Below, piece after piece: positions 5,081 through 28,568 of a DNA stretch of 32,000 bases. Within the stretch, counting starts at the first letter, position 1; each line of letters opens with the position of its first letter. The notes beneath the pieces were generated by a model. The model did not search any database and was not told the DNA's origin. It saw only the letters and a program-made list of their open reading frames with translations. The DNA is from Candidatus Heimdallarchaeota archaeon B3_Heim (GTDB lineage Archaea; Asgardarchaeota; Heimdallarchaeia; Hodarchaeales; Hodarchaeaceae). The stretch lies in assembly GCA_003144275.1 (NCBI GenBank), contig NJBF01000009.1, positions 7,653 to 39,652 of the forward strand. The letters are read 5' to 3'. A program made the position numbers and the translations under genes.

Positions 5081-6691
5081 TTATAAGGGTTTTCCCATAT
5101 AAGGGCCAATTTGTTTAAACCCCAACTTACGATAATAGTCACGTACACCAAGACCTGATGTTACTAGGATTTTTCGATAGTCCCGATCACGTGCGATTTC
5201 TTCTGCCTTTGTAATTAGCTTTGCCCCAAGTCCCCGATGTTGCCACTCTAGATTTTTTGGTTCTTGACCAATTCCTACTAATTGACCATAAACATGAAGC
5301 TCTCGGATAATCACTGCAGATTGATCTTTAATTTCAGGGCGATAAGATGCACTTGATGGTTCCCTGACTCGTAAAAATCCAAATAAAGTCTTTTTATCTT
5401 CAGTATCAAAGGATATAAAATGTTCTATACCACCAGACGCTGGATATTCAAAAGTGTGTAACTTTCTTTCCTTTTCTGACCATGACTGATCCTTCCGAAG
5501 AATCTGATGTCCGATTTCTCTACATCGGATACAGGAACATACCCCTCCCTTGTTTCTAAGATGTTTATCTGCTAGTTCTCGGAGATTCCCATAACGCACT
5601 CCATCCGTGATTAAATAAGCAGGGATATCCCTTTGTACTCGTTGAATACGAACAAATTCGGGTGTGATTTCTTTAATTTTGGATATTACTTCAACCACTT
5701 TGTCTGAATCGTATGGTACGTATTCTTTTTTCTGCCATAAATTGAATAATTGAGTATTTTGAAGTACTAATGTGGGATAGATTTTTACAGCATCTGGAAC
5801 ATAGCGAGGATCTGTGTACATAGTTTTAAACATCTGTACGTCTTCTTCAGGAGTCTGGAATAGGTTAGGCATTAGATGTAAAGTGACTTTTAGACCTCCG
5901 TCCCGAGCAAAGCGAATTGCTCTTTCTACATCTTGAATTGTATGATGACGTTGCACGTGTTTTAAGACATCATCCGATAAGGTTTGTACTCCGATCTCGA
6001 CCCACGTTCCCCCTAATTCTAGAATTCTATTTACATGAGTTTTTTTACAATAATCAGGGCGGGTTTCGAAGGTTATCCCGACATTACGTCTGAGACTTCG
6101 GTCAGAATAATCCTTGGCCATCTGTAATGATGAAGATGATTCGCCAGTTATTCCATCAAGAGATTCTCTTATATAATTCTCTTGATATTCTTCTGGGTTA
6201 GCTAAGAAGGTACCTCCCATAATTACTAAGTGAACTTTATCAAGTGGATGTCCAATTGCTCTAAGCTGATTTAATCTAGCTGTAACTTGCTTTTTTGGAT
6301 CGAAATCATTCTCAATACCGCGCATTGCCGCTGGTTCTCTTCCCGTGTAAGATTTAGGGGCTCCTGGAACATCAGGACAATAGATACATTTACCCGGGCA
6401 AGGTGACGGTTTTGTCATTAGAGCTACAACAGCAATACCACTTATAGTTCTAACTTTACGTACACGCAAAAAAATTCGTAAAGATTCTTTATCGGAATTC
6501 GTCAAAATATCAGTCGATTCAACAAATTCTATAATTTCTGAATTTCGAACGAATCTATCTAAATTGTATTCTTTTGCTATTTTCCTCTTTAAACTTTCTA
6601 GCTTGGAATGCTTTAGCCCAGGATCATTCACGAGAGCGACTACAATAGCTTCAAGAGCTTGATACAATTTATCGGTTAAATTTTGAGCCAT
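5081..6691 (-). CDS. elp3: Elp3 tRNA U34 carboxymethyltransferase (radical SAM + KAT domain)
   Basis: RTISGIAVVALM, CPGKCIYCP, PKSYTGREPA, GGTF, ETRPD, R.QRDIP, RELHVYG and QHRGLG. Confidence 0.96.
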   Translation of the reverse strand: MAQNLTDKLYQALEAIVVALVNDPGLKHSKLESLKRKIAKEYNLDRFVRNSEIIEFVESTDILTNSDKESLRIFLRVRKVRTISGIAVVALMTKPSPCPGKCIYCPDVPGAPKSYTGREPAAMRGIENDFDPKKQVTARLNQLRAIGHPLDKVHLVIMGGTFLANPEEYQENYIRESLDGITGESSSSLQMAKDYSDRSLRRNVGITFETRPDYCKKTHVNRILELGGTWVEIGVQTLSDDVLKHVQRHHTIQDVERAIRFARDGGLKVTLHLMPNLFQTPEEDVQMFKTMYTDPRYVPDAVKIYPTLVLQNTQLFNLWQKKEYVPYDSDKVVEVISKIKEITPEFVRIQRVQRDIPAYLITDGVRYGNLRELADKHLRNKGGVCSCIRCREIGHQILRKDQSWSEKERKLHTFEYPASGGIEHFISFDTEDKKTLFGFLRVREPSSASYRPEIKDQSAVIIRELHVYGQLVGIGQEPKNLEWQHRGLGAKLITKAEEIARDRDYRKILVTSGLGVRDYYRKLGFKQIGPYMGKPL

Positions 6692-13636: not shown

Positions 13637-15475
13637 TTACCATCGTGAAAAACCAATTCCACAAGTTTCCGATATAAGTAACAAGAATAAAGCAATTTCC
13701 TCCATTTCTTGATTTGATTCTGATGCAACAAACGCAACTCCTTCTCCCTGATATAATGGTTGCAGAATCATTGATAGTATTGCATCTAACGTTTTACCCA
13801 GAGTCCACAAAGCTTCTGTTTCAATTTGCTCACGAATTTCTTTTTCATAAATGAAAGTTTTAAATTTTGATGGAATTTTTTCCTTAATAAAATCACGATT
13901 GGGAGGAATTACCAAAATGGCTCCTTCTCTTGGTATGTTAAATCTTGAAGAAAGTGTTTTAATATTCAGTTCTACTTGAGTAAGGTATTCTACGATGCTT
14001 AGCCATAATATTCCCCGTAGAGCAATTTTTTCATTTTCAGAAGAAACCCCTAAAGACACTGAACGTTCGTTGATTTCTAGGCTTCCTTCAAGCCTTGTTG
14101 CTAAGTCTTTTAACGAATCATGTATGCTTTCGAGTCTTGGTCCATATGTAGAGATATGATATTCAAAGCGATCACGCTTGCGGAACAAACTAACTGTAAT
14201 GTTTGATTCACTAGAAGGTACAACACTTGTTGGTGAGAGTTCAAGGGCCATGGGTGATGTATCTAGAACTACTGGAATGTCAGCGAAATTGTACTGTAAA
14301 CCGCTCTCTCTGGTTTTCTGTAGTTTTGCTTTAAGTCCGGGACTTAAGGCTTCTGTCGTTATGGAGCGTTTAATAACAGGTTTAACTATCGGTTGTTTTG
14401 TTGGAATTGCATCTGGCTCAGCATCTAGTTCAATAATAGGTGGTGGTGTGGTTTCTTCAATCGATGGAGTACCAATTAATGAGGATTGTGTCTGTAACTC
14501 ATCTTTTCCAACAACTAGTTCTTGAAGTTCGGGAAGTTCCGTAGTTTCTATTTCTCTTGATGGAGGAGTAAATTCTCGCATTTTATACATAACTGGAGCT
14601 GACATTGTTACTACAATGTCTTTTCCAGGTTGTATTACTGTTGAAAGTAATACATTGTTTCTGAGATAATTATCCTCACTTGAGGGAAACAGTGCCATGG
14701 ATTGAGCTATCTCTCGGGCATCCTCATTATCAATGAATTTTCTCATTTTTGCTGTATTGGTGTTCTCACCAAAAATTCTGCTAAGGACGTCATAAACATG
14801 CTCTCCTGCGTTTGCAGAAAAATACTGTTTGAGAGGTGATTCCAAACCGAAAATCAATATATTATCATTTTCCTCAACTCCAGGTATAGGAGTAAATGAC
14901 AGAACTCGCGAAGTCTTGGAAGCATCTATAATGGATAAAAGATCGCTTGTGTCATTTGGGTCTATGAAAACCAGTCTGGATACGACACTCTCAACCCCAT
15001 ATCTCAGATCATGAGCAAAAGCTGTAAGTAATACCAAAGCAGAAAGCATGCCATCTGGTGTTCGAGGAATGACATATATAGAATTTGCAGGAGATGTCAA
15101 TAATTGATAAAAGGTATCTAGATGTCTATTTTGAGCATCTAAGATATTTCCTTCCAGAAATTGTTCCACCAATTTTAATACAATTCCCATAGTAGGTACT
15201 ACTTGACGAGCACTTTTCTCTATAGGGATCAGCACAATTGCTACAAGATCGTCAATTCTTCTTACCTGTGGGAATAAAAATACCATCCGATGATTGGCAA
15301 ATCTAATAAAGTGAATTCTTTCTCCTCCCATAATCTTCTGTGAAAAAAGAGTGAGAACTTGGGTAACAGTTGCACTGATTTTTGAGTGTTGAGATAAAAG
15401 ACCTTTACCTGAGCTAAAAATTACTCTATTTTGGTGAACGACAAGGAGATCGGTAGAATCCATTCTTGTATCCAT
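13637..15475 (-). CDS. Hypothetical protein with N-terminal longin-like domain (possible DENN-like module), P/E/T-rich linker and unknown C-terminal alpha/beta domains
   Basis: The first ~105 aa follow a beta-beta-alpha-beta-beta-beta-alpha pattern (LLVVH..RVIFS / KISATV..LFSQKIMG / IHFIRF / RMVFL / LVAIVL / helix). The fold call is inference. Confidence 0.6.
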   Translation of the reverse strand: MDTRMDSTDLLVVHQNRVIFSSGKGLLSQHSKISATVTQVLTLFSQKIMGGERIHFIRFANHRMVFLFPQVRRIDDLVAIVLIPIEKSARQVVPTMGIVLKLVEQFLEGNILDAQNRHLDTFYQLLTSPANSIYVIPRTPDGMLSALVLLTAFAHDLRYGVESVVSRLVFIDPNDTSDLLSIIDASKTSRVLSFTPIPGVEENDNILIFGLESPLKQYFSANAGEHVYDVLSRIFGENTNTAKMRKFIDNEDAREIAQSMALFPSSEDNYLRNNVLLSTVIQPGKDIVVTMSAPVMYKMREFTPPSREIETTELPELQELVVGKDELQTQSSLIGTPSIEETTPPPIIELDAEPDAIPTKQPIVKPVIKRSITTEALSPGLKAKLQKTRESGLQYNFADIPVVLDTSPMALELSPTSVVPSSESNITVSLFRKRDRFEYHISTYGPRLESIHDSLKDLATRLEGSLEINERSVSLGVSSENEKIALRGILWLSIVEYLTQVELNIKTLSSRFNIPREGAILVIPPNRDFIKEKIPSKFKTFIYEKEIREQIETEALWTLGKTLDAILSMILQPLYQGEGVAFVASESNQEMEEIALFLLLISETCGIGFSRW

Positions 15476-16223: not shown

Positions 16224-16976
16224 TTATTGTTGTTGTTTCATCATATGGATAATGATTTCTCTTACGAGGCTTTCTACAGGTTTTATCACGCGATTTACAC
16301 TTGTAGGTCTATATTCTTTTTTCAACCTACCATTTTCATCCACTATTTTACTCCGATCACTACTGGAAAGGAGTTGTTTCAAATCGTCACGAGCATTCAG
16401 GCATGAAACTTCAATAATTCTGACTGCTGCATCTCTTAAACTAGTCACCGCACCAGATTCACTCAACAATTTTCCCACTTCAAAAGAAGAAATGCGTTGC
16501 ACGATGGGGAGGTCCATTTTATTTAGCATAATATGATATGGAAGAGAACCACTTGCTAGTTTATCACCAACAAGGTCATTAATTTCCCGAAGTGCAAATT
16601 TATTTTCCTCCCATCTAGATTTTTCAGAATCAACAACACAAATTAATCCATGGGCTCCTCTTAAGACAACTTTCCTCTGTCCTGAGTGACGTTCCTGACC
16701 AGGCACAGTAAATAAATGATATTTTAAAATAGGGAGACCTGCGCTCGTTTTACCAATTCCAAAAATACCCTGATCAAAGAAAAGAGTACGTCCTGTTGGA
16801 TCTTCCAATTTTAAGAATTTATAAACATTTTCTGGATCTTCAAGGCTTTTTAACACCTTTGTTATTGTTAAAGCTGTGGTTTTCCCAGCCAGAGTAGGTC
16901 CCCAAAATACTATTTTAACTACAGGGACTCCTTGGTGATCTCTTTTTATGGTTTCAAAGGTTGATTGTGCCTGCAT
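16224..16976 (-). CDS. MglA-like small GTPase
   Basis: KIVFWGPTLAGKTT, GRTLFFD, HLFTVPGQ, RKVVLRGAHGLICVVDS and NKMD, which are the signatures of the MglA family. The ATG at 16976 is preferred. Confidence 0.85.
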   Translation of the reverse strand: MQAQSTFETIKRDHQGVPVVKIVFWGPTLAGKTTALTITKVLKSLEDPENVYKFLKLEDPTGRTLFFDQGIFGIGKTSAGLPILKYHLFTVPGQERHSGQRKVVLRGAHGLICVVDSEKSRWEENKFALREINDLVGDKLASGSLPYHIMLNKMDLPIVQRISSFEVGKLLSESGAVTSLRDAAVRIIEVSCLNARDDLKQLLSSSDRSKIVDENGRLKKEYRPTSVNRVIKPVESLVREIIIHMMKQQQ

Positions 16977-17036
16977 GATAAACACCTTGTAATGGATAGG
17001 GATGGACGCGTGTGTATGCAAAAGAGCTTTTTCAAA

Positions 17037-17600
17037 TTATTTTGATATGTTATCTTTCTCTATAACTTGTTTTGCTAAGCTATGGAAAATTTCAGTAATT
17101 TCAGAACCCCCCTCTTTTGCTGAGGTTTCATAATATGACATATTTAGTGCATCAGCAACTTTTCGGGCATCTTTTTCAGATACTACTCTTTCATCAACGA
17201 GATCGTTTTTATTTCCAGCTAAAGCAATGGGAACAGTTGGTGGGATGTACTTAGTAAATTCAGTTAACCAAGTCGGAATCGCCTCAAAAGACTTTTTATC
17301 AGTAAGTGCAAACATAATTAAGCAAGCTGTAGCTCCTCGGTAATAGCTCGGTCTTAATTTGCCAAAGAACTCCTGTCCAGCAGTGTCTACTAAGATTAAT
17401 TTAACTTGACTGTTATTAACCTCAATCTTCTTTGTTGTAATGTCAACACCTAGCGTTGGTAAATAATTGGTTTCGAATTTGTTCTCTGCAAATCTACGGA
17501 TGAGGGATGTTTTTCCTACACTCCCAGATCCAATTGCACAAATTTTGAGTAAGTATTCATTAGTATTTGTCAAAGATGAAACTCCTATTAATACTGTCAT
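17037..17600 (-). CDS. Rab-like small GTPase (no C-terminal prenylation Cys)
   Basis: GSGSVGKTS, PTLGVD, DTAGQE, YYRGA, NKND and ETSAK. Confidence 0.92.
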   Translation of the reverse strand: MTVLIGVSSLTNTNEYLLKICAIGSGSVGKTSLIRRFAENKFETNYLPTLGVDITTKKIEVNNSQVKLILVDTAGQEFFGKLRPSYYRGATACLIMFALTDKKSFEAIPTWLTEFTKYIPPTVPIALAGNKNDLVDERVVSEKDARKVADALNMSYYETSAKEGGSEITEIFHSLAKQVIEKDNISK

Positions 17601-18526
17601 AAACCCATTTTTGAAAGATCTTGTAGTGATTGTCGCATATCGTCAATAAATTCGTCTCGTTCGGAACGTGTTTTTTCCCTCAACATATCAACAAAGAGAA
17701 CCTGTCCATTTTCAATATACAGACGAACCTCATAGTGAGCAGCGGGGAATATACCCGAAGGTAAATCATCCATCGGTTCTAATTTTACAACATCCTTAGA
17801 AAAGAGCTGCAAATGCTCTTTAATGACCGAAAATACGGTATTTCCAATAATAACAATTTCTCTTGTCAAATGTGAAGGAATCGTTAATTCTTTTAATTTT
17901 TCAGCTACAACACTAAGGGGAGTGGAGGTCGTTGCATCGACTTGACGAGTAACAACAACTTCTGTTTCCTTCACTACTCTAGGTTTTGAAACAGGCGAAG
18001 GTGCACTACTCGGCCTGGGTGTGGGAGCAGCTGAGGGCGCTGGAGTAGATTGTACTGTAGGTGCTGGTTTTGGAGCGCGTACTGAAGCTTGTGCTGGAGT
18101 AGGACGTGCTTTTGGTACGGCAGTTGGAGCAGGACGAGGAGTTGAAACAGTAGTTTGAGAAGGAGCAGTTGTGGGACGTGATACAACCTGAGATTCAGCT
18201 TTATCTGCGTCTGAAGAACTGACTATTGATGGTATTTCGCCAAAGATAGCAAGAAAATCCTTCCCCTCTATTCCAGGGTCGAGGCTATCAATACGGTAAA
18301 CCATTCCATATTGTTCTTGTCGCATCTGTTGTGCAGCCTTGGCAGAAATAAACTTTCTTCTCACAGGGGCCTCTTCTCCCTTCCAAATAAAAATCTTTCT
18401 TAACCCTTCATCTACAATAATATAAACTGCATTATTTTGTAGTCCTCCAAGGGAAGACACATCACAATGAGTTAGAGTTCCATCGTCGTTTACTGTAAAC
18501 TTTTTAATTTGGTCAGAGTTGCTCAC
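17597..18526 (-). CDS. Gelsolin-like domain protein with Pro/Ala/Thr-rich linker and uncharacterised C-terminal domain
   Basis: VYIIVDEGLRKIFIWKGEEAPVRRKFISAKAAQQMR matches the gelsolin-repeat core (D....I(F/Y).W.G......K..A...A). It is followed by a ~70-aa PRP/PTP-rich linker. Its stop overlaps the Rab start (ATGA). Confidence 0.75.
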   Translation of the reverse strand: MSNSDQIKKFTVNDDGTLTHCDVSSLGGLQNNAVYIIVDEGLRKIFIWKGEEAPVRRKFISAKAAQQMRQEQYGMVYRIDSLDPGIEGKDFLAIFGEIPSIVSSSDADKAESQVVSRPTTAPSQTTVSTPRPAPTAVPKARPTPAQASVRAPKPAPTVQSTPAPSAAPTPRPSSAPSPVSKPRVVKETEVVVTRQVDATTSTPLSVVAEKLKELTIPSHLTREIVIIGNTVFSVIKEHLQLFSKDVVKLEPMDDLPSGIFPAAHYEVRLYIENGQVLFVDMLREKTRSERDEFIDDMRQSLQDLSKMGL

Positions 18527-18748
18527 AGGTTATCATCACACAGTTCCAAGTGTAAAATCCTGAGTATTTGGTGATTTTCGCGGATTTTCTATATGTAAAT
18601 GATATCACTACCACTTTTTAAAATCCACTTAATATAATGACTCATAAAAGGTTATGACATTCTTTCATAAATTTCTTTCTTTTTAACAAACATATCCTTT
18701 TAGATATATTTTTTGTTTAGTAGGGATTTTGTTTTTAATTGTATAAAA

Positions 18749-19564
18749 ATGAAAATTGATAATTGGATTGAGAGAGGATTAAATTCTTTAAGCTCAGGTG
18801 ATTTTTTTGATGGGATGCAACTGATGGAAGGAGCGATAAGACGAGTTTTTAGATCAGATCATCCTGATACAGCTTTAAGAATATTTAAAAGCACTAGTGA
18901 GATTCTAATCGCAGAAGGACTCGAAGATTTATATTGCCAATTCATAATAGGGACCATTCCTCTTTTCAAAAAGAAACTCGGGAATATTGAATGGTTTGCA
19001 CTTCTCCCTGAAATATTGGTCATTTTAAGAGAAAATAAAGTACTTTTATGCATTCCCAAGTTTATTAATAAAATGATTTTGGAAACGAAAATTGCTCAAG
19101 AGGATTTTATTCAAACAATGATTTTTGATGTTGCTAAAGGAAAATATTCCAAGAATATTGTCGCGGATCTGCACTATTATCATGCAGGATTGTTCGTTTC
19201 AAAACAGGACTATGTAAAGTGCTTTGATATTCTGAAAGAGTGGAATGACTTAATAGTTTCTTCTCCACGTGTATTAACATATTTAACTTTAGCTGAGTTA
19301 AATGCCTATGAAATTGAAGGTTGCGGTAAGTATCTAGAACTAGCCAAATCTCTCTCTGATACTTCTCCGTATATTGAACTAGCGAATCACCTTTACAAAT
19401 CCGTTGAGGCAGGTAATTATGATCTCTACTCATCAATTATTGGTGAATATGCTGACATAGTCAACGCTAAGCATGATGCATTACTCAAAGGTTTATGTGA
19501 TGGAATTTCCGATTTCTTAAAACCAAAAGGGAATAAAGGACTTTTCTCATTATTTGGAGGTTGA
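18749..19564 (+). CDS. Alpha-helical repeat protein resembling eukaryotic Get4/TRC35
   Basis: Three colinear motifs (S..GDFFD..Q......R, LH...A......QDY, P......L...V..G......I...Y) and a C-terminal LFSLFGG correspond to Get4 motifs recalled from memory. The ATG at 18749 is preferred. The CDS is confident; the family call is moderate. Confidence 0.65.
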   Translation: MKIDNWIERGLNSLSSGDFFDGMQLMEGAIRRVFRSDHPDTALRIFKSTSEILIAEGLEDLYCQFIIGTIPLFKKKLGNIEWFALLPEILVILRENKVLLCIPKFINKMILETKIAQEDFIQTMIFDVAKGKYSKNIVADLHYYHAGLFVSKQDYVKCFDILKEWNDLIVSSPRVLTYLTLAELNAYEIEGCGKYLELAKSLSDTSPYIELANHLYKSVEAGNYDLYSSIIGEYADIVNAKHDALLKGLCDGISDFLKPKGNKGLFSLFGG

Positions 19565-20074
19565 AATTACCTCAATTATCTTTCTAACGGCTTCTATTCC
19601 CGTTTCAGCATGATAAATTTGTTCTGAAACAGGAGGGTGTTGTAATGATCCCCGCTCGCCGATTTCCTGACTCCACCCAGGGATTGATGTAATACAAACT
19701 ATTGGACGATCGTAAAGAGCTGCATATGCTAATTCTGAAAGAGTACCGATATTTCCTCCACAAGCAATGACCCCCTCTGATGCGAGAGCAACGATAGAAT
19801 TTCGTCCCCAATGTAAAAAAGTAGGAATTCTTACAGTTAAATAAGGAGATACTTCTTCATCTTCCACTCCTGCGGGAAGTATTCCAATCGATATACCCTT
19901 AGCATCGTATGCTCCTTTTGTAGCTGCTAACATTACTCCTCCTCTTCCACCACATATCAAAATCGAGCCAGAGTGTGCAATTTCTTGACCAATTTCATAA
20001 GCAATCTTGTATTGTAAGTCTGATCGTATCTGTGAATCCCCAATAACTCCAATTTGCATTTTTCTCTTATTCAT
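19550..20074 (-). CDS. TIGR00725/LOG-family Rossmann-fold nucleotide-binding protein
   Basis: IGVIG, CGGRGGVM.A...GA, GILP, RN.IVA, and GG..GTLSELAYA. The start is ATG 20074 or 20089. Confidence 0.88.
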   Translation of the reverse strand: MNKRKMQIGVIGDSQIRSDLQYKIAYEIGQEIAHSGSILICGGRGGVMLAATKGAYDAKGISIGILPAGVEDEEVSPYLTVRIPTFLHWGRNSIVALASEGVIACGGNIGTLSELAYAALYDRPIVCITSIPGWSQEIGERGSLQHPPVSEQIYHAETGIEAVRKIIEVISTSK

Positions 20075-20636
20075 CCGACTCACTTTCATTAAAATAGGTC
20101 TTTTTTCCTTCTACTGAGGGTTTAATTTTTCTCTTAGAATTCGGAAAATTTATTTCTAACGAGTTTGGAATTAATTTCTCAAGAAATATAGCTAAGGAAC
20201 CAACTTCAGAGTGTGGTTGATTTGTAATGGCAACATTCCAATCTGCATAATAAAATACCTTTGCAGGCACTTTTTCTCCTCCTACAATTACTAGAAGTTG
20301 TTTTAATGCTTCTCTAGAAGATCTAAACATTTTAAATTGTTCATTAGATTGAAAATTTTGTATGTTTTCGCCATACATTGTGAGATGTATGATTTTTCCC
20401 TTTTTCTGTTTCCAATCCTCTAAGAATTGAGGCCAATCTTCATAAGGGAGAAATTCAATTGAAAAATCTCCTCCCCACTCCGACACTACTTTAGAAACTG
20501 ATTTAATAATGTTTTCATCAGTTTCCCCCGCAATCCGAATACCTACTGATCCAAAAGCACGAGCTACTAAGGCCAAATGAGTAGTAACTCGTTTATCACG
20601 AAAAATACGATGACCAAGTCGAAACACTGTTACCAA
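20067..20636 (-). CDS. trm56: tRNA (cytidine(56)-2'-O)-methyltransferase (SPOUT)
   Basis: RLGHR..RDKRVTTH..LVARAFG, HLTMYG, VGGEKVP and NQPHSEV. Confidence 0.95.
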   Translation of the reverse strand: MVTVFRLGHRIFRDKRVTTHLALVARAFGSVGIRIAGETDENIIKSVSKVVSEWGGDFSIEFLPYEDWPQFLEDWKQKKGKIIHLTMYGENIQNFQSNEQFKMFRSSREALKQLLVIVGGEKVPAKVFYYADWNVAITNQPHSEVGSLAIFLEKLIPNSLEINFPNSKRKIKPSVEGKKTYFNESESDE

Positions 20637-20659
20637 GTAGTGTTCACTCTTTTTACAAA

Positions 20660-21217
20660 TTATTTCTTTAGGTGGTTACGTATCGTATGAGCAAGAGTAG
20701 TAAATGATTCATCAACGTTTTCACCAGTTTTTGCTGAAGTTTCAAGATAGGGAACTTTAAATCTTATATCATACTGACCCTTAATTTCCTCAATATAAGC
20801 TTGGACGTCTTCTGGTGTGACAGGATCATCAACCTCATTACGAAGATCCACCTTATTTCCTAAAATGGTTATTGGCATTATTCCTCTTCCTGAATTGCGA
20901 TAGAGTTCTTCTATCCAAGAAGACAGATTCGTAAAGGAATCACGTCTAGTAATATCAAAGACTAGAAGTCCACCATGCGACCCTTTATAATATAATTCTC
21001 GAACACTATTAAAACGAGGTTGTCCAGCCAAATCCCAAATTTGGAACTTAACGCTTTTTTTTCCTTCTTCAGTAGAGATTTGGGTCTTCTTAACAGCAAA
21101 ATCTGCGCCAATGGTCATCACATAACCACTCGAGAATTGTTTCCCAAGATATCGTTCACGTAATGCTGTTTTTCCGACTGCACCATCGCCTAATAGACAA
21201 ACTTTCATCAATAACAA
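20660..21217 (-). CDS. Rab-like small GTPase (no C-terminal prenylation Cys)
   Basis: GDGAVGKT, TIGADF, KFQIWDLAGQPRF, YYKGS, LVFDIT, NKVD and ETSAK. TTG start after GGAG. Confidence 0.93.
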   Translation of the reverse strand: MLLMKVCLLGDGAVGKTALRERYLGKQFSSGYVMTIGADFAVKKTQISTEEGKKSVKFQIWDLAGQPRFNSVRELYYKGSHGGLLVFDITRRDSFTNLSSWIEELYRNSGRGIMPITILGNKVDLRNEVDDPVTPEDVQAYIEEIKGQYDIRFKVPYLETSAKTGENVDESFTTLAHTIRNHLKK

Positions 21218-22001: not shown

Positions 22002-24293
22002 ATGGTCGGGTTGAAAATTTCATCATCTGAGTTGAAAGATATCATCGACATCCTCGGATTATCTGAGGATGAACAGGGTGTTGTATATATAAACTTGCTA
22101 TCATTGGGTATGGCAACTCTAGGGCAGTTAAGTCTTGTCTCTGGCGTCGATTTCATCCAAACTCAAGAGACTTTGAATGTACTCATAGGTAGTAACTTGG
22201 TGAAACGCATTCCTGGGAAAGTTGGACGCTATATAGCTCTTCAACCCTTCTTAAAAGCATTTTTTCTATCTTATGACCCATTAACTCTCATTAATGTCAG
22301 GAAAGAATCAAAGGACGCTTTTGAAAAGAATACAGAATTCCTTCAAAATAATTTTAACCAAACAAGTGAGAAATTTAGAGAACATACTTCATCCTTAACC
22401 CAAGATTTTTCAGAAAACCTTGAACCAATAACTGAAGGTTTTTTGACGATCTCAACTGACCAAAGAAATCTTGTCACGTCAATTAATGAGGCTATACAAT
22501 TGGATATTCAATTTGTAAAAGATCAGATACAAACTATCATCGAAAAAGCCTCGGAATTGTACAACCAAATCAATGATGAAAATATTGAAGAAATCGAAAA
22601 GCTTCCTGAGTTATTTAATAATATCCCAACAATAAAGAACCAGCTCCAGAATGTTCAACAACAGATTTCCTCTAGTTTTGAGGAAATACGAGCAGGACAG
22701 GTCGAGAAAGCTGATGTGATTAACAAGGCTTTTGGGGAGGGAATTAAACGACATATGAACGAAAATCATCGTATCATAGAAAATTTTAATACTAACCTAG
22801 CCAAGAATCGTGAAAGTATTGAAGAATTTACGTATGAGACTAAGAACAAGCTAGAATTAATTAGGAATAATGCGAAGGCTACTCAACCCAAATTTCAAGA
22901 ATTCCGTTCTAGTTATAATGATATTGAAGAGAATCTTCAAACCTTGTTCTCATCAATCCCCCTTAAATTAAACAACATAGAAAATGTGATTTCAGACCTA
23001 ATATCAGAAATAAAAAATCGAAAAATGTTTAGAGGAAAAGAAGAGTTTATTGATCAACTGAAATTAGTACAAGAAGAGAAATTAGCTATCTCTCAACTTA
23101 TTTCCTCTTCTATGGGTAAAGCTGATCTATTAAATAAACTTAATCAAGATTTGGCTGAAATCGAGGATAAAATTGTAAATGCTACGGATGTGGGTGTTGA
23201 CTCAACAATTAGTGTGTTTGAAGAAAGAAGAAAATTGTTTCGAGAGCAATTAAATAACATAGAAAACGAATTTAACCTTAATTTAGGCAAAGAAGTTAAT
23301 GATTCTTTGTTAACCATAAAACAGGGACTTAATGATCAAATAATGACTTTAAAAATTGATTCAGACAACTTATTCAGAAGATTAACACAGGAACTAAAAT
23401 CAGAATTAGAAAATTCTACGAAAATATTTTCAGAGGTAATCTTGAATTCTATTAACGAGTTCAAACAAAATTTCAAAGTGAATCTTGAAGCAAGTAAGAC
23501 TAAAGTTATCGAAGAGAGTGAACTAGTCCAAAAAATTGCAAATATCGGTGAATTAAGCAATCAGGTAAAAATGAATCTCAACAACGCCTCTAAGAATATA
23601 ATAGATCTTGATACGTCATTAAATTCATATTTTTCAGGGTTAACGAATTTTACTTCCAACTATGCTGATGAACAGCTCAATACGTTCGTTTCCAACTTGA
23701 ATGAGTCAAAAATGAGAATTGATGAATTTCTTGAGCAGACAGAGAGACAACTCGAACACGAAGTCTCTGCGTTGATCTTTACTATCAAGGAAATGAAACA
23801 GAAACTGAGCAAAGTAACAAACGTGATGAGTTCTGTTGAATTAAGTGAACTAGATCCATCATTATTGGACACCGATCTTGTGATTGGAGAACCAGTTATT
23901 ATTTTGCTCCTTCGAGACTTAACTGTAAGGACAAAATCGTCTCTAACTATACTTATGCCTCGTCCTGAATTACAAACTTTAATAGCTGCCTCTAAATTGC
24001 CGTTTAAGACTCGTGTAACTATTATTGGGGATTTCCTTAAAGTACCTAAAACCACTCTAAAAAAAGTTACATCTTCCTCCAATATTCGCTTAAAACAACT
24101 TGATGGTATTGAATTTTGGGGGTGTATTCGAGATGCAGAAGAACTTCTGATTTGCCCTGAACCAAAAAATCCAGAAAAAGAAGAATTAGTTGGAGTAATC
24201 ACAACAAATGGAAATCTAGTTGACTTATTCACACAAGAAATTATTACCTATACTACTAGAAGCAGGGAAATTCTCCCTTCTGATTTAGAATAA
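22002..24293 (+). CDS. TrmB-like HTH protein with a very long central coiled coil and C-terminal TrmB/PLD-like domain
   Basis: N-terminal LGLSEDEQGVVYINLL..G..T..QLS winged-HTH pattern, about 550 aa of helical heptads, and a C-terminal alpha/beta domain (IRDAEELLICP). Confidence 0.75.
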   Translation: MVGLKISSSELKDIIDILGLSEDEQGVVYINLLSLGMATLGQLSLVSGVDFIQTQETLNVLIGSNLVKRIPGKVGRYIALQPFLKAFFLSYDPLTLINVRKESKDAFEKNTEFLQNNFNQTSEKFREHTSSLTQDFSENLEPITEGFLTISTDQRNLVTSINEAIQLDIQFVKDQIQTIIEKASELYNQINDENIEEIEKLPELFNNIPTIKNQLQNVQQQISSSFEEIRAGQVEKADVINKAFGEGIKRHMNENHRIIENFNTNLAKNRESIEEFTYETKNKLELIRNNAKATQPKFQEFRSSYNDIEENLQTLFSSIPLKLNNIENVISDLISEIKNRKMFRGKEEFIDQLKLVQEEKLAISQLISSSMGKADLLNKLNQDLAEIEDKIVNATDVGVDSTISVFEERRKLFREQLNNIENEFNLNLGKEVNDSLLTIKQGLNDQIMTLKIDSDNLFRRLTQELKSELENSTKIFSEVILNSINEFKQNFKVNLEASKTKVIEESELVQKIANIGELSNQVKMNLNNASKNIIDLDTSLNSYFSGLTNFTSNYADEQLNTFVSNLNESKMRIDEFLEQTERQLEHEVSALIFTIKEMKQKLSKVTNVMSSVELSELDPSLLDTDLVIGEPVIILLLRDLTVRTKSSLTILMPRPELQTLIAASKLPFKTRVTIIGDFLKVPKTTLKKVTSSSNIRLKQLDGIEFWGCIRDAEELLICPEPKNPEKEELVGVITTNGNLVDLFTQEIITYTTRSREILPSDLE

Positions 24294-27157: not shown

Positions 27158-28568
27158 CATGATCAAATTTGTCGGACAAGTAAAAAAATTGAGGTTGAAA
27201 AAAGGCAAGTCATTTTCGTTTTCGGGGACCTCTCTCTGGTACAAGGTTAAATACAAGAAAAACAGTCCAATAAATGGGAATGCGAGCCAAAAAACAGACA
27301 CACCCACAACTGACAATAAGAATCCAAATGAAATCAAAGCCCATTTTTGTGGATTTGTGTACACGAGCCAAAAACTTGTATAATAGAGCTACCTACCAGG
27401 TGCGACAAGAATTTTTTGCCACAGGAAACTGGTTGCAGTATACAACTCTTTATCATCAACTAAAGCATGAACCAGTCTATTTGGCACTAAAAGAAATCTC
27501 TGATAGCTATCTCCCTCAACAAGTCCTCCGCCAGGTGGAACAAACCTGGAGAAGTTATTTTAATGCAATGAAAGTCTGGAAAAAAGAACCCAGTAAGTTT
27601 CTTGGTCAGCCTCGTCTTCCAGGCTATAAAGCAAAAAATGGCCTTCATGTGCTTAGCTTTCCACGACCCCGTGTCCGAATCCGAGGAACAGAGGTATTAT
27701 TTGCACGGAATTTAATGGCTCGTGGATTTCCCTCGTTTCCAGTGGGAAATCTCCCTGTTTCTAGAAAAACCTGTACGGGTGCTAGATTAGTGCCGTTTTA
27801 TGATCGATTTGTGGTTGAAATTCTGTATGAAACCGAAGTAAAGTCGTTATCCTCATTTAAAGAATCACCTAGAGCTATTGGTATAGATCTTGGGATTACT
27901 AACCTCGTAGCTACGTCAGACGGCTTACTCGTCAAAGGCGGGGTGGTAAAAACCGTCAATCAATGGTACAACAAGCAATTAGCCTATTTTAAATCACTCG
28001 CAAAAAAACACAATCAACAACATAATACACGTCGAATGCAACGGATGCATCGTGTCCGCGCAAATAAGATCAGTGATTATTTCCATCAAACCTCTCGAAC
28101 AATTATTAATCACTGTTTACAGAAAAATATTCACACCCTTGTTGTTGGCTATAATTCCTTTTGGAAACAGCATTGTAATTTGGGAAAACGAACAAACCAA
28201 TCATTCGTCCAAATACCCTTTTTTAAATTACTTCATATGCTTGAATATAAAGCTAAATTAGTGGGTATATCCGTTATTCGTGTCTCAGAAGCATATACTT
28301 CTCAACAGTGTAGTGATTGTGGTATAATTGATAAATGTAACCGAAGATCGCGAGGATTGTACCATTGTCGTTCCTGTGGCCTTCGTCTTAACGCCGATCA
28401 CAATGCCGCCATTAATATTCTTCAGCGTTCATCTCTTGATAAACAAGTAGTCCCTTCGGTCAGTTCAAGCTCTATTTGTTCTGATCAGCCGGATAGGGGA
28501 TGTGTGACTCATCCTGTCGTGACTCAAAAAGTTTAGTATTCTTTTTTTGTCCGACAAATCTAGTCATG
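27158..28568 (+). mobile_element. 1411-bp solo-TnpB insertion element (IS200/IS605 superfamily, IS1341-like organisation; no tnpA)
   Basis: A single tnpB ORF bounded by 23-bp imperfect inverted ends: 27157-27179 versus the reverse complement of 28547-28569, 20/23 identical. Boundaries are supported by where homology to copies A and B stops. Confidence 0.85.
27274..28536 (+). CDS. tnpB: TnpB RNA-guided endonuclease with rearranged RuvC-II site
   Basis: N-terminal OrfB HTH (KNLYN...), RuvC-I AIGIDLG, VVGYN..WKQ in place of the canonical E, alternative E in RVSEAYTS, CSDC/CRSC zinc finger and RuvC-III NADHNAAINI. Confidence 0.96.
   Translation: MGMRAKKQTHPQLTIRIQMKSKPIFVDLCTRAKNLYNRATYQVRQEFFATGNWLQYTTLYHQLKHEPVYLALKEISDSYLPQQVLRQVEQTWRSYFNAMKVWKKEPSKFLGQPRLPGYKAKNGLHVLSFPRPRVRIRGTEVLFARNLMARGFPSFPVGNLPVSRKTCTGARLVPFYDRFVVEILYETEVKSLSSFKESPRAIGIDLGITNLVATSDGLLVKGGVVKTVNQWYNKQLAYFKSLAKKHNQQHNTRRMQRMHRVRANKISDYFHQTSRTIINHCLQKNIHTLVVGYNSFWKQHCNLGKRTNQSFVQIPFFKLLHMLEYKAKLVGISVIRVSEAYTSQQCSDCGIIDKCNRRSRGLYHCRSCGLRLNADHNAAINILQRSSLDKQVVPSVSSSSICSDQPDRGCVTHPVVTQKV

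Follow-up and report, generated by a model that had tools for sequence, protein, structure and literature searches.

The DNA stretch analyzed here, called the window throughout, comprises 32,000 nucleotides of contig NJBF01000009.1 from Candidatus Heimdallarchaeota archaeon B3_Heim, a member of the Hodarchaeales. Our subject is a single gene of this window, located at 18749..19564 on the + strand, which encodes a protein of 271 AA plus stop, termed P0001. A preliminary description, made from the sequence alone, had presented this gene as a candidate archaeal homologue of Get4/TRC35, a eukaryotic factor that takes part in targeting tail-anchored proteins. The open reading frame (ORF) is real, as seen from its translation, and the four strings that the description had compared with human GET4 are all present in the protein: LNSLSSGDFFDGMQLMEGAIRRV at residues 11-33, ADLHYYHAGLFVSKQDY at 139-155, PYIELANHLYKSVEAGNYDLYSSIIGEY at 207-234 and GLFSLFGG at 264-271. 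The start codon is the ATG at 18749, the same ATG at which its relatives begin; a TTG located upstream, at 18713, was considered as a start and found to be unsupported.

The AlphaFold model of P0001 (predicted local distance difference test, pLDDT, 91; predicted template modelling score, pTM, 0.87) displays a solenoid of 14-15 helices followed by a disordered tail. The N-terminal domain (residues 1-132, helices 1-7; 18749..19144, +), supported by hhalign and by a fold search of the domain alone, is the proposed Get3-docking domain and includes the most conserved N-terminal block of the family, residues 6-32 (18764..18844, +), where W6, G10, F20, D21, G22, Q24, G28 and R32 are invariant columns. 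The C-terminal domain (residues 133-257, helices 8-14; 19145..19519, +), recognized by language-model features and by Pfam GET4 matches in two divergent relatives, G063p and G023p, described below, contains the invariant block YLTLAELNAYE at residues 178-188. The protein ends in a conserved, predicted-disordered tail, KPKxxKGLFSLFGG (residues 258-271; 19520..19561, +), in which residues 261-271 have pLDDT < 50 and K258, K260, S267, L268, F269 and G270 are nearly invariant; Gly/hydrophobic tails are also found in G023p (SGGLFPLF), G063p (GFPGFPGMPFGGGV) and metazoan Get4 (GGLLGNLL).

In a collection of 5.8 billion proteins we found 31 full-length relatives of P0001, at 35-88% identity; those named in their source are hypothetical proteins of Hodarchaeales or Hodarchaeota metagenome-assembled genomes (MAGs). 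Searched exhaustively, 1.84 billion representatives yielded only 15 clusters, and a family-profile search detected one copy in each of the genomes of the same genus-level group (21/21). The gene and its family are thus genuine and conserved. Sequencing runs cover only small portions of the window; in one metatranscriptome run two contigs of 151 nt fall inside the gene, with 2-4 differences each, a weak hint, no more, that it is transcribed in a close relative.

The strongest evidence for a kinship with Get4 is given by the INTERMEDIATE sequences G063p and G023p, obtained when the family profile was run against 201, and then 400, Asgard genomes. G063p, a protein of 284 AA, belongs to another Asgard lineage (L057:4601-5452:-, which equals G063:C27:37600-38451) and is related to the family with an hhalign probability of 95.5% (E 1.5e-8, 235 columns). 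On its own it matches the Pfam GET4 model (PF04190, formerly DUF410) with an E-value of 0.0016 and 18.6 bits, residues 133-260 being placed against profile positions 131-233 of 257. Moreover, its N-terminus compared with a metazoan Get4 profile gave a probability of 67% (P 5.1e-5, residues 3-57 against 25-79), in the same register that the P0001 family itself shows against metazoan Get4. No relative of G063p was found in 60 kin genomes, and the MAG that encodes it has 9% contamination, which bears on the contig origin of the protein. G023p, of 290 AA, comes from the sister family of the same order (L067:2342-3211:-, G023:C604); it is related to the P0001 family with a P value of 7.3e-9 over 253 columns and matches Pfam GET4 with an E-value of 0.015 and 15.5 bits (residues 171-281 against profile positions 123-238).

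Both GET4 matches are located in the C-terminal domain and in register, and neither protein matches SNAP. As sequence evidence these two sub-threshold matches carry real weight, even after the scanning of 33 family proteins (the 31 members, G063p and G023p), because GET4 had been fixed as the hypothesis beforehand among 24,736 Pfam models. The check by DUF410 profile proposed in the preliminary description gave in this way a divided answer, negative for P0001 itself and positive, below threshold, for its two divergent relatives. Further weak profile matches in other Asgard families (E 0.002-0.05) were noise-like, and the one that was examined (G122) turned out to be an unrelated protein.

We also compared the family with metazoan Get4 at the level of profiles, using database sequences that were obtained with a 50-residue Get4 fragment (strings of the preliminary description, lengthened) as bait and that all carry PF04190. 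The initial alignments gave an hhalign P value of 0.047, which improved alignments lowered to 0.006 (231 collinear columns), and as archaeal diversity was added P fell further to 0.0012 and 0.00026, over about 231-244 collinear columns; the last value corresponds to the profile including G063p and G023p (probability 42%, 231 columns). The alignment pairs GDFFDGMQ...R with GDYYEAHQ...R and VLTYLTL with VLQFLCL, and the family-invariant F20, D21, G22, Q24, G28 and R32 with the metazoan-invariant Y42, E43, A44, Q46, T50 and R54. Its score, 27.4 over 231 columns, is above the best of 100 block shuffles (25.5) and of 100 column shuffles (24.9), and well above the reversed controls, which scored 12.9 and 16.6. 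When the domains were taken separately, the N-domain aligned in register with the Get4 N-domain (P 0.001, 87 columns) while the cross-domain controls gave P values of 0.5 (N against Get4 C) and 0.11 (C against Get4 N). Conserved columns of the two families coincide as well, with a rho of 0.173 that is reached by 1.8% of circular shifts.

Concerning the four pairings with human GET4 made in the preliminary description, the first and the third, those of LNSLSSGDFFDGMQLMEGAIRRV and PYIELANHLYKSVEAGNYDLYSSIIGEY, were reproduced by hhalign against the database sequences. The second was not; the profile alignment sets the human-type residues 145-161 opposite about 118-134, and ADLHYYHAG opposite SRYHFLHS. 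The fourth, that of the C-terminal tail, is aligned when G063p is used as master and falls outside the alignment otherwise.

In the search by language-model features, among 100 matches to P0001 the 32 nearest that bear a family were GET4 clusters (0.94, 218/256 features); GET4 clusters also came first for a member at 27% identity (0.92, 211 features, with a low recognition value) and for the C-terminal half alone (0.90, 186/256), while SNAP clusters ranked below GET4 in all three queries (0.76-0.87; for P0001, 0.76-0.85).

The comparison of folds is less selective. With the whole model, the leading Foldseek matches were Sec17/SNAP and TRC35/Get4 side by side (E from 4e-4 to 3e-3), with an E-value of 4e-4 and a template modelling (TM) score of 0.46 for Sec17/SNAP and 5e-4 and 0.33 for TRC35/Get4, so the structural check that had been suggested found Get4/TRC35 among the best matches, tied with SNAP/Sec17. 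The VIA aligner, an independent method, gave Z 12.8 for Sec17 (238 residues aligned, root-mean-square deviation, rmsd, 7.9), 11.9 for gamma-SNAP (222, rmsd 9.9), 11.8 for TRC35 (207, rmsd 9.2) and 8.5 for yeast Get4 (230, rmsd 9.0), values that are not decisive for the whole model, Z below about 13 being common for helical repeats. HAP40, Get4 and SNAP are all among the best matches to the model, and because of this a global fit to SNAP is what would be expected of a Get4 relative.

With the N-domain folded alone, yeast, human and C. thermophilum Get4 were found at ranks 4, 6 and 7 of 48,161 chains (Z 10.1, 9.9 and 9.9), with 130 residues aligned from the N-terminus and rmsd 4.6-4.9, and no SNAP appeared among the top 50. 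These ranks tie with designed repeats and eIF3a, the fold alone being unspecific, and Foldseek with the same domain gave nothing at E <= 0.001, with Get4 at rank 21. An Atlas shape search returned generic bacterial TPR proteins only.

The preliminary description had named a Get3-type ATPase as the expected partner, and the genome (94% complete) does encode one. It carries three ArsA-family genes, one of which specifies a Get3 of 316 AA (L014:1501-2448:-; 279 bits to PF02374) with the P-loop, the switch motifs, a CXXC motif (C262/C265) and a KDLYDE motif that matches the DELYED of yeast; CXXC Get3 proteins are encoded in the G063 and G023 genomes too. Two adjacent ArsA-family paralogues of 341 and 332 AA (L002:1435-3479, contig C84 of G000) are about 28% identical to the CXXC Get3; such a tandem pair is also present in G001, G046 and G063. 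The genome also encodes an insertase of the EMC3/TMCO1 type (DUF106).

Two copies of this Get3, two ATP, one Zn and one P0001 were modelled as a complex, which gave an ipSAE (interaction prediction score from aligned errors) of 0.62 (runs 0.65, 0.62 and 0.52), compared with 0.00 for the best of three controls. Of the 80 solved complexes used as reference 58 attain this mark, against 2 of 110 mismatched pairs, counts that serve only as a rough guide for a prediction made with its own alignments and ligands. The runs share at least 43% of the contacts, and the pLDDT of the partner is at least 82. On P0001 the predicted interface comprises residues 2, 5, 6, 9, 19-21, 23-25, 27, 28, 31, 35, 61 and 64, on and around the most conserved N-terminal block of the family; on Get3, one protomer contributes residues 227-241 and 278-284, the other 51 and 55-57. 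We take these Get3 positions to correspond to about 246-260, 301-307 and 63-69 of the yeast protein.

The contacts described for yeast Get3 with Get4 are E253, D300, D303, E304, E307 and D308 (PMC11594295, which writes D253). The conserved N-terminal motif of P0001 is thus predicted, by modelling only, to dock where yeast Get4 binds Get3.

Within the class, the Get3 interface residues are conserved in genomes that have a Get4-like gene, whereas they are different in those in which none was detected. This co-variation was dropped as evidence, given that acidic xY[DES][DE] motifs on alpha11 are common, in a wider sample, among Asgard Get3 proteins of genomes with no detected Get4-like gene. As a separate observation, the Get3 proteins L036 and L040-L042, from other Heimdallarchaeia families, have lost the acidic xLY[DE][DE] motif on alpha11 (for example KQAFPN and ESVFGK), a motif kept by most other Asgard Get3 and by eukaryotic Get3.

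A number of results weigh against reading P0001 as a Get4 that works with Get3. To begin with, direct searches of P0001 did not reveal the relationship: P0001 and 30 relatives have no Pfam GET4 match at E <= 10, nor a convincing match to any other Pfam family, SNAP included, and the GET4 model matches nothing in the own genome. Neither phmmer nor the family profile found a Get4 chain, or any other sequence, in the PDB. A metazoan Get4 hidden Markov model (HMM), run with filters off, ranks P0001 only 275th among the 4,728 ORFs of the genome; with an HMM of the metazoan N-domain it ranks 135th and the top matches are noise, while hhalign of the single P0001 sequence with Get4 gives only an off-register local match. 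The scores of G063p and G023p are themselves under the Pfam gathering threshold of 30 bits, which the P0001 family does not reach, hence its relation to Get4 is, at the sequence level, one of remote homology and not of formal Pfam membership. Furthermore, the C-domain compared with the metazoan Get4 C-domain was not significant and off register (P 0.11), and the profile-profile comparison covers Get4 alone. To the whole model, SNAP/Sec17 is at least as good a fit as Get4.

Other points concern the partner. Get3 K69 pairs with Get4 D74 in the regulation of the ATPase (PMC10248533), a salt bridge apparently not kept here, where Get3 has Q57 and the aligned position of P0001 is Q64. Protein language models underlie the feature search as well as the prediction of the complex, so these two results are not independent; the complex score shows likeness to the solved Get3-Get4 complex and may not reflect real binding. 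Get5_N (PF12754), SGTA_dimer (PF16546) and Get1/CHD5 were undetected in the genome, although the Get5_N model was silent in every control genome too, so that the absence of Get5 is not established. Finally, the Get4-like gene never adjoins Get3 and is always found beside small-GTPase and gelsolin-like genes.

This last point leads to the explanation that survives best among the rivals, namely that P0001 serves the proteins encoded by the neighboring gelsolin-like, Ras/Rab-like and Arf/MglA-like genes as a helical-repeat adaptor or regulator, its likeness to Get4 being irrelevant to its role. These three genes form an operon at 16224-18526 (-), strictly syntenic in all relatives examined, and P0001 is divergent from it, as had been described; a Sua5 gene belongs to the same operon. 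Between both lies an AT-rich divergent intergenic region (18527..18748, no strand assigned, read directly from the sequence), and all relatives whose flanks are long enough keep this divergent orientation, even the one with 27% identity, a promoter region of 220 bp being shared in all five loci examined. Helical-repeat proteins often bind small GTPases. The adjacency is nevertheless not specific, because the entire block of 12 kb is syntenic in the genomes of P0001 relatives, including the unrelated Sua5, Trm56 and SLOG genes; moreover, the genes of G063p and G023p lie in neighborhoods unlike the Hodarchaeales block (that of G023p on a contig of 3.4 kb), and the surface that the family conserves most coincides with the predicted Get3-docking site. 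For these reasons we regard an adaptor of this kind as unlikely.

As regards the products of this operon, the gelsolin-like protein has a long Pro/Ala/Ser/Thr-rich linker and matches Pfam Gelsolin only with E 0.026, and the GTPases are a Ras/Rab-like protein (E 5.5e-51) and a 265-AA protein with weak Arf similarity. On its other side P0001 faces, in convergent orientation, Trm56 and another Ras-like GTPase, the second of the region. An SLOG cluster-4 (LOG-like) gene, located at 19550-20089 (-) and convergent as well, shares 15 nt with the 3' end of the Get4-like gene; it is placed between P0001 and Trm56 in all the relatives examined except the most divergent one (L011), and it is followed, at 20067-21217 (-), by aTrm56 and the second Ras-like GTPase. 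Orthologues of P0001 were also sought by synteny around Trm56 in other Heimdallarchaeia, where the neighborhood proved to be different.

Synteny across the relatives is also conserved for a 612-AA protein that has no Pfam match (13637-15475, -) and for a 763-AA protein with a TrmB-type helix-turn-helix and a long helical region (22002-24293, +). Farther away, the window encodes a radical-SAM/GNAT protein of the Elp3 type (5081-6691, -), whose N-terminal domain is that of ELP3, and a mobile element is marked by a gene of the TnpB/OrfB_IS605 type (27274-28536, +) that carries a Cas12f1-like TNB domain.

A second possibility is that P0001, as a TPR-like solenoid particular to its lineage, is not specifically related to Get4 and that the weak signals arise from a shared helical-repeat composition. 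Every sequence signal is indeed weak or sub-threshold, helical repeats give many middling fold matches, Get4 being level with eIF3a and with designed repeats among them, and the shape search of the Atlas points to nothing beyond generic TPR proteins. Even so, GET4, chosen in advance, returns by several methods, for both domains and in register; the shuffled, reversed and cross-domain controls fail, and the Get4 signal grows with each addition of archaeal diversity, all of which makes a generic solenoid improbable, slightly more so than the adaptor just discussed. The outcome that the preliminary description had set as unfavorable, generic TPR and SNAP matches only, was nearly what P0001 alone gave, while the deeper tests all prefer Get4.

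Least probable is an archaeal SNAP/Sec17 relative working with a Cdc48/NSF-like AAA+ ATPase on SNARE-like proteins: no fold fits the whole protein better than those of Sec17 and gamma-SNAP, and SNARE-like proteins are reported for Heimdallarchaeota (bioRxiv 10.1101/810531), but none of the 33 family proteins matches Pfam SNAP (PF14938) at E <= 10, whereas two match GET4, SNAP stays under GET4 in all three feature searches and is missing from the N-domain top 50, and a global fit to SNAP is expected of a Get4 relative.

Returning to Get4, P0001 is very probably a remote homologue of the eukaryotic protein, as argued by the features, the N-domain alignment and fold, and the two divergent relatives, in support of what had first been proposed; it is probably also a partner of Get3 that works as Get4 does. 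Considering both aspects together, we find it quite likely that P0001 is a very divergent archaeal Get4/TRC35 homologue that docks on its own Get3 and acts in a Get4-like manner. Helices 1, 2 and 4 would dock, by their conserved face, on the closed, ATP-bound dimer of the CXXC-type Get3 of the organism. The anchor would be helices alpha10/alpha11 of one Get3 protomer, with the acidic patch (DELYED in the yeast protein), and in the other protomer P0001 would also reach the loop that follows switch I. If it acts as yeast Get4 does, it may hold Get3 ready for cargo and postpone the hydrolysis of ATP until loading with a tail-anchored protein, and the C-terminal half together with the conserved disordered tail may recruit a candidate upstream factor; regulation of the ATPase, hand-off of cargo and the upstream partner are the parts of this scheme that we infer by analogy.

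Archaea are known to possess Get3 and insertases of the Oxa1 type, and the Hodarchaeales are close archaeal relatives of eukaryotes. In the literature consulted Get4 is described only in eukaryotes (e.g. bioRxiv 10.1101/154351), and we found no published link between Get4 and Asgard archaea in a full-text search pairing both, in the Asgard papers found under the lineage names or in the supplements of the Hodarchaeales paper. The balance of the evidence leans, if only somewhat, to a Get4-Get3 module that worked in Asgard archaea before eukaryotes, priming the Get3 ATPase for tail-anchored cargo, and that survives in Hodarchaeales and at least one other Asgard lineage, with Get5/Ubl4A, Sgt2 and Bag6 added later onto this archaeal core. 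The earlier suggestion that part of the pre-targeting complex predates eukaryotes would hold at most for the Get4-Get3 pair, Get5/Ubl4A, Sgt2 and Bag6 being undetected. If this is true, one step in the delivery of tail-anchored proteins may predate eukaryotes, and protein targeting would join the cell-biology toolkit traced to Asgard archaea. Get3 plus a Get4-like protein would also provide a minimal two-component system, free of Get5 or Sgt2, for the study of Get3 regulation, and the origin of the pre-targeting complex would become testable with recombinant proteins.

Among known systems, the PCI lid subunits and TREX-2 scaffolds (Rpn6/Rpn12, Csn12/Thp1, eIF3a) resemble P0001 in helical repeats that superpose with Z 9-10.6, and, with TM 0.74, Rpn6-like clusters match the model of its C-terminal half taken from the Atlas; unlike them, P0001 has no winged-helix beta-strand module and no Pfam PCI match. 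Alpha/gamma-SNAP and Sec17 offer the best global fold match, with similar length and helix count, but there is no sequence or profile signal, language-model scores are lower and the N-domain alone does not retrieve them. From Get4/TRC35 (PF04190; 3LKU, 2WPV, 3LPZ, 6AU8, 4PWX) P0001 differs in being archaeal, in being missed by the Pfam model, which its relatives match with only 15-19 bits, in having no Get5/Ubl4A, Bag6 or Sgt2 detected beside it, and in the Get3 K69 - Get4 D74 pair, apparently not conserved. It has no beta-hairpin between helices 13 and 14 (loop 234-243), as in metazoan TRC35.

In common with Get4/TRC35 it has a length in the range of about 270-330 AA, a 14-helix alpha-solenoid in two halves (for Get4, bioRxiv 10.1101/154351), an N-terminal motif G-D-aromatic-aromatic-acidic-small-x-Q...R, a Gly/hydrophobic C-terminal tail, co-occurrence with a CXXC Get3 and, as predicted by the modelled complex, a docking site on Get3 alpha10/alpha11 and on the second protomer. 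Failing the Pfam threshold, and with the known Get4 partners undetected, the P0001 family is best described as an archaeal variant of Get4.

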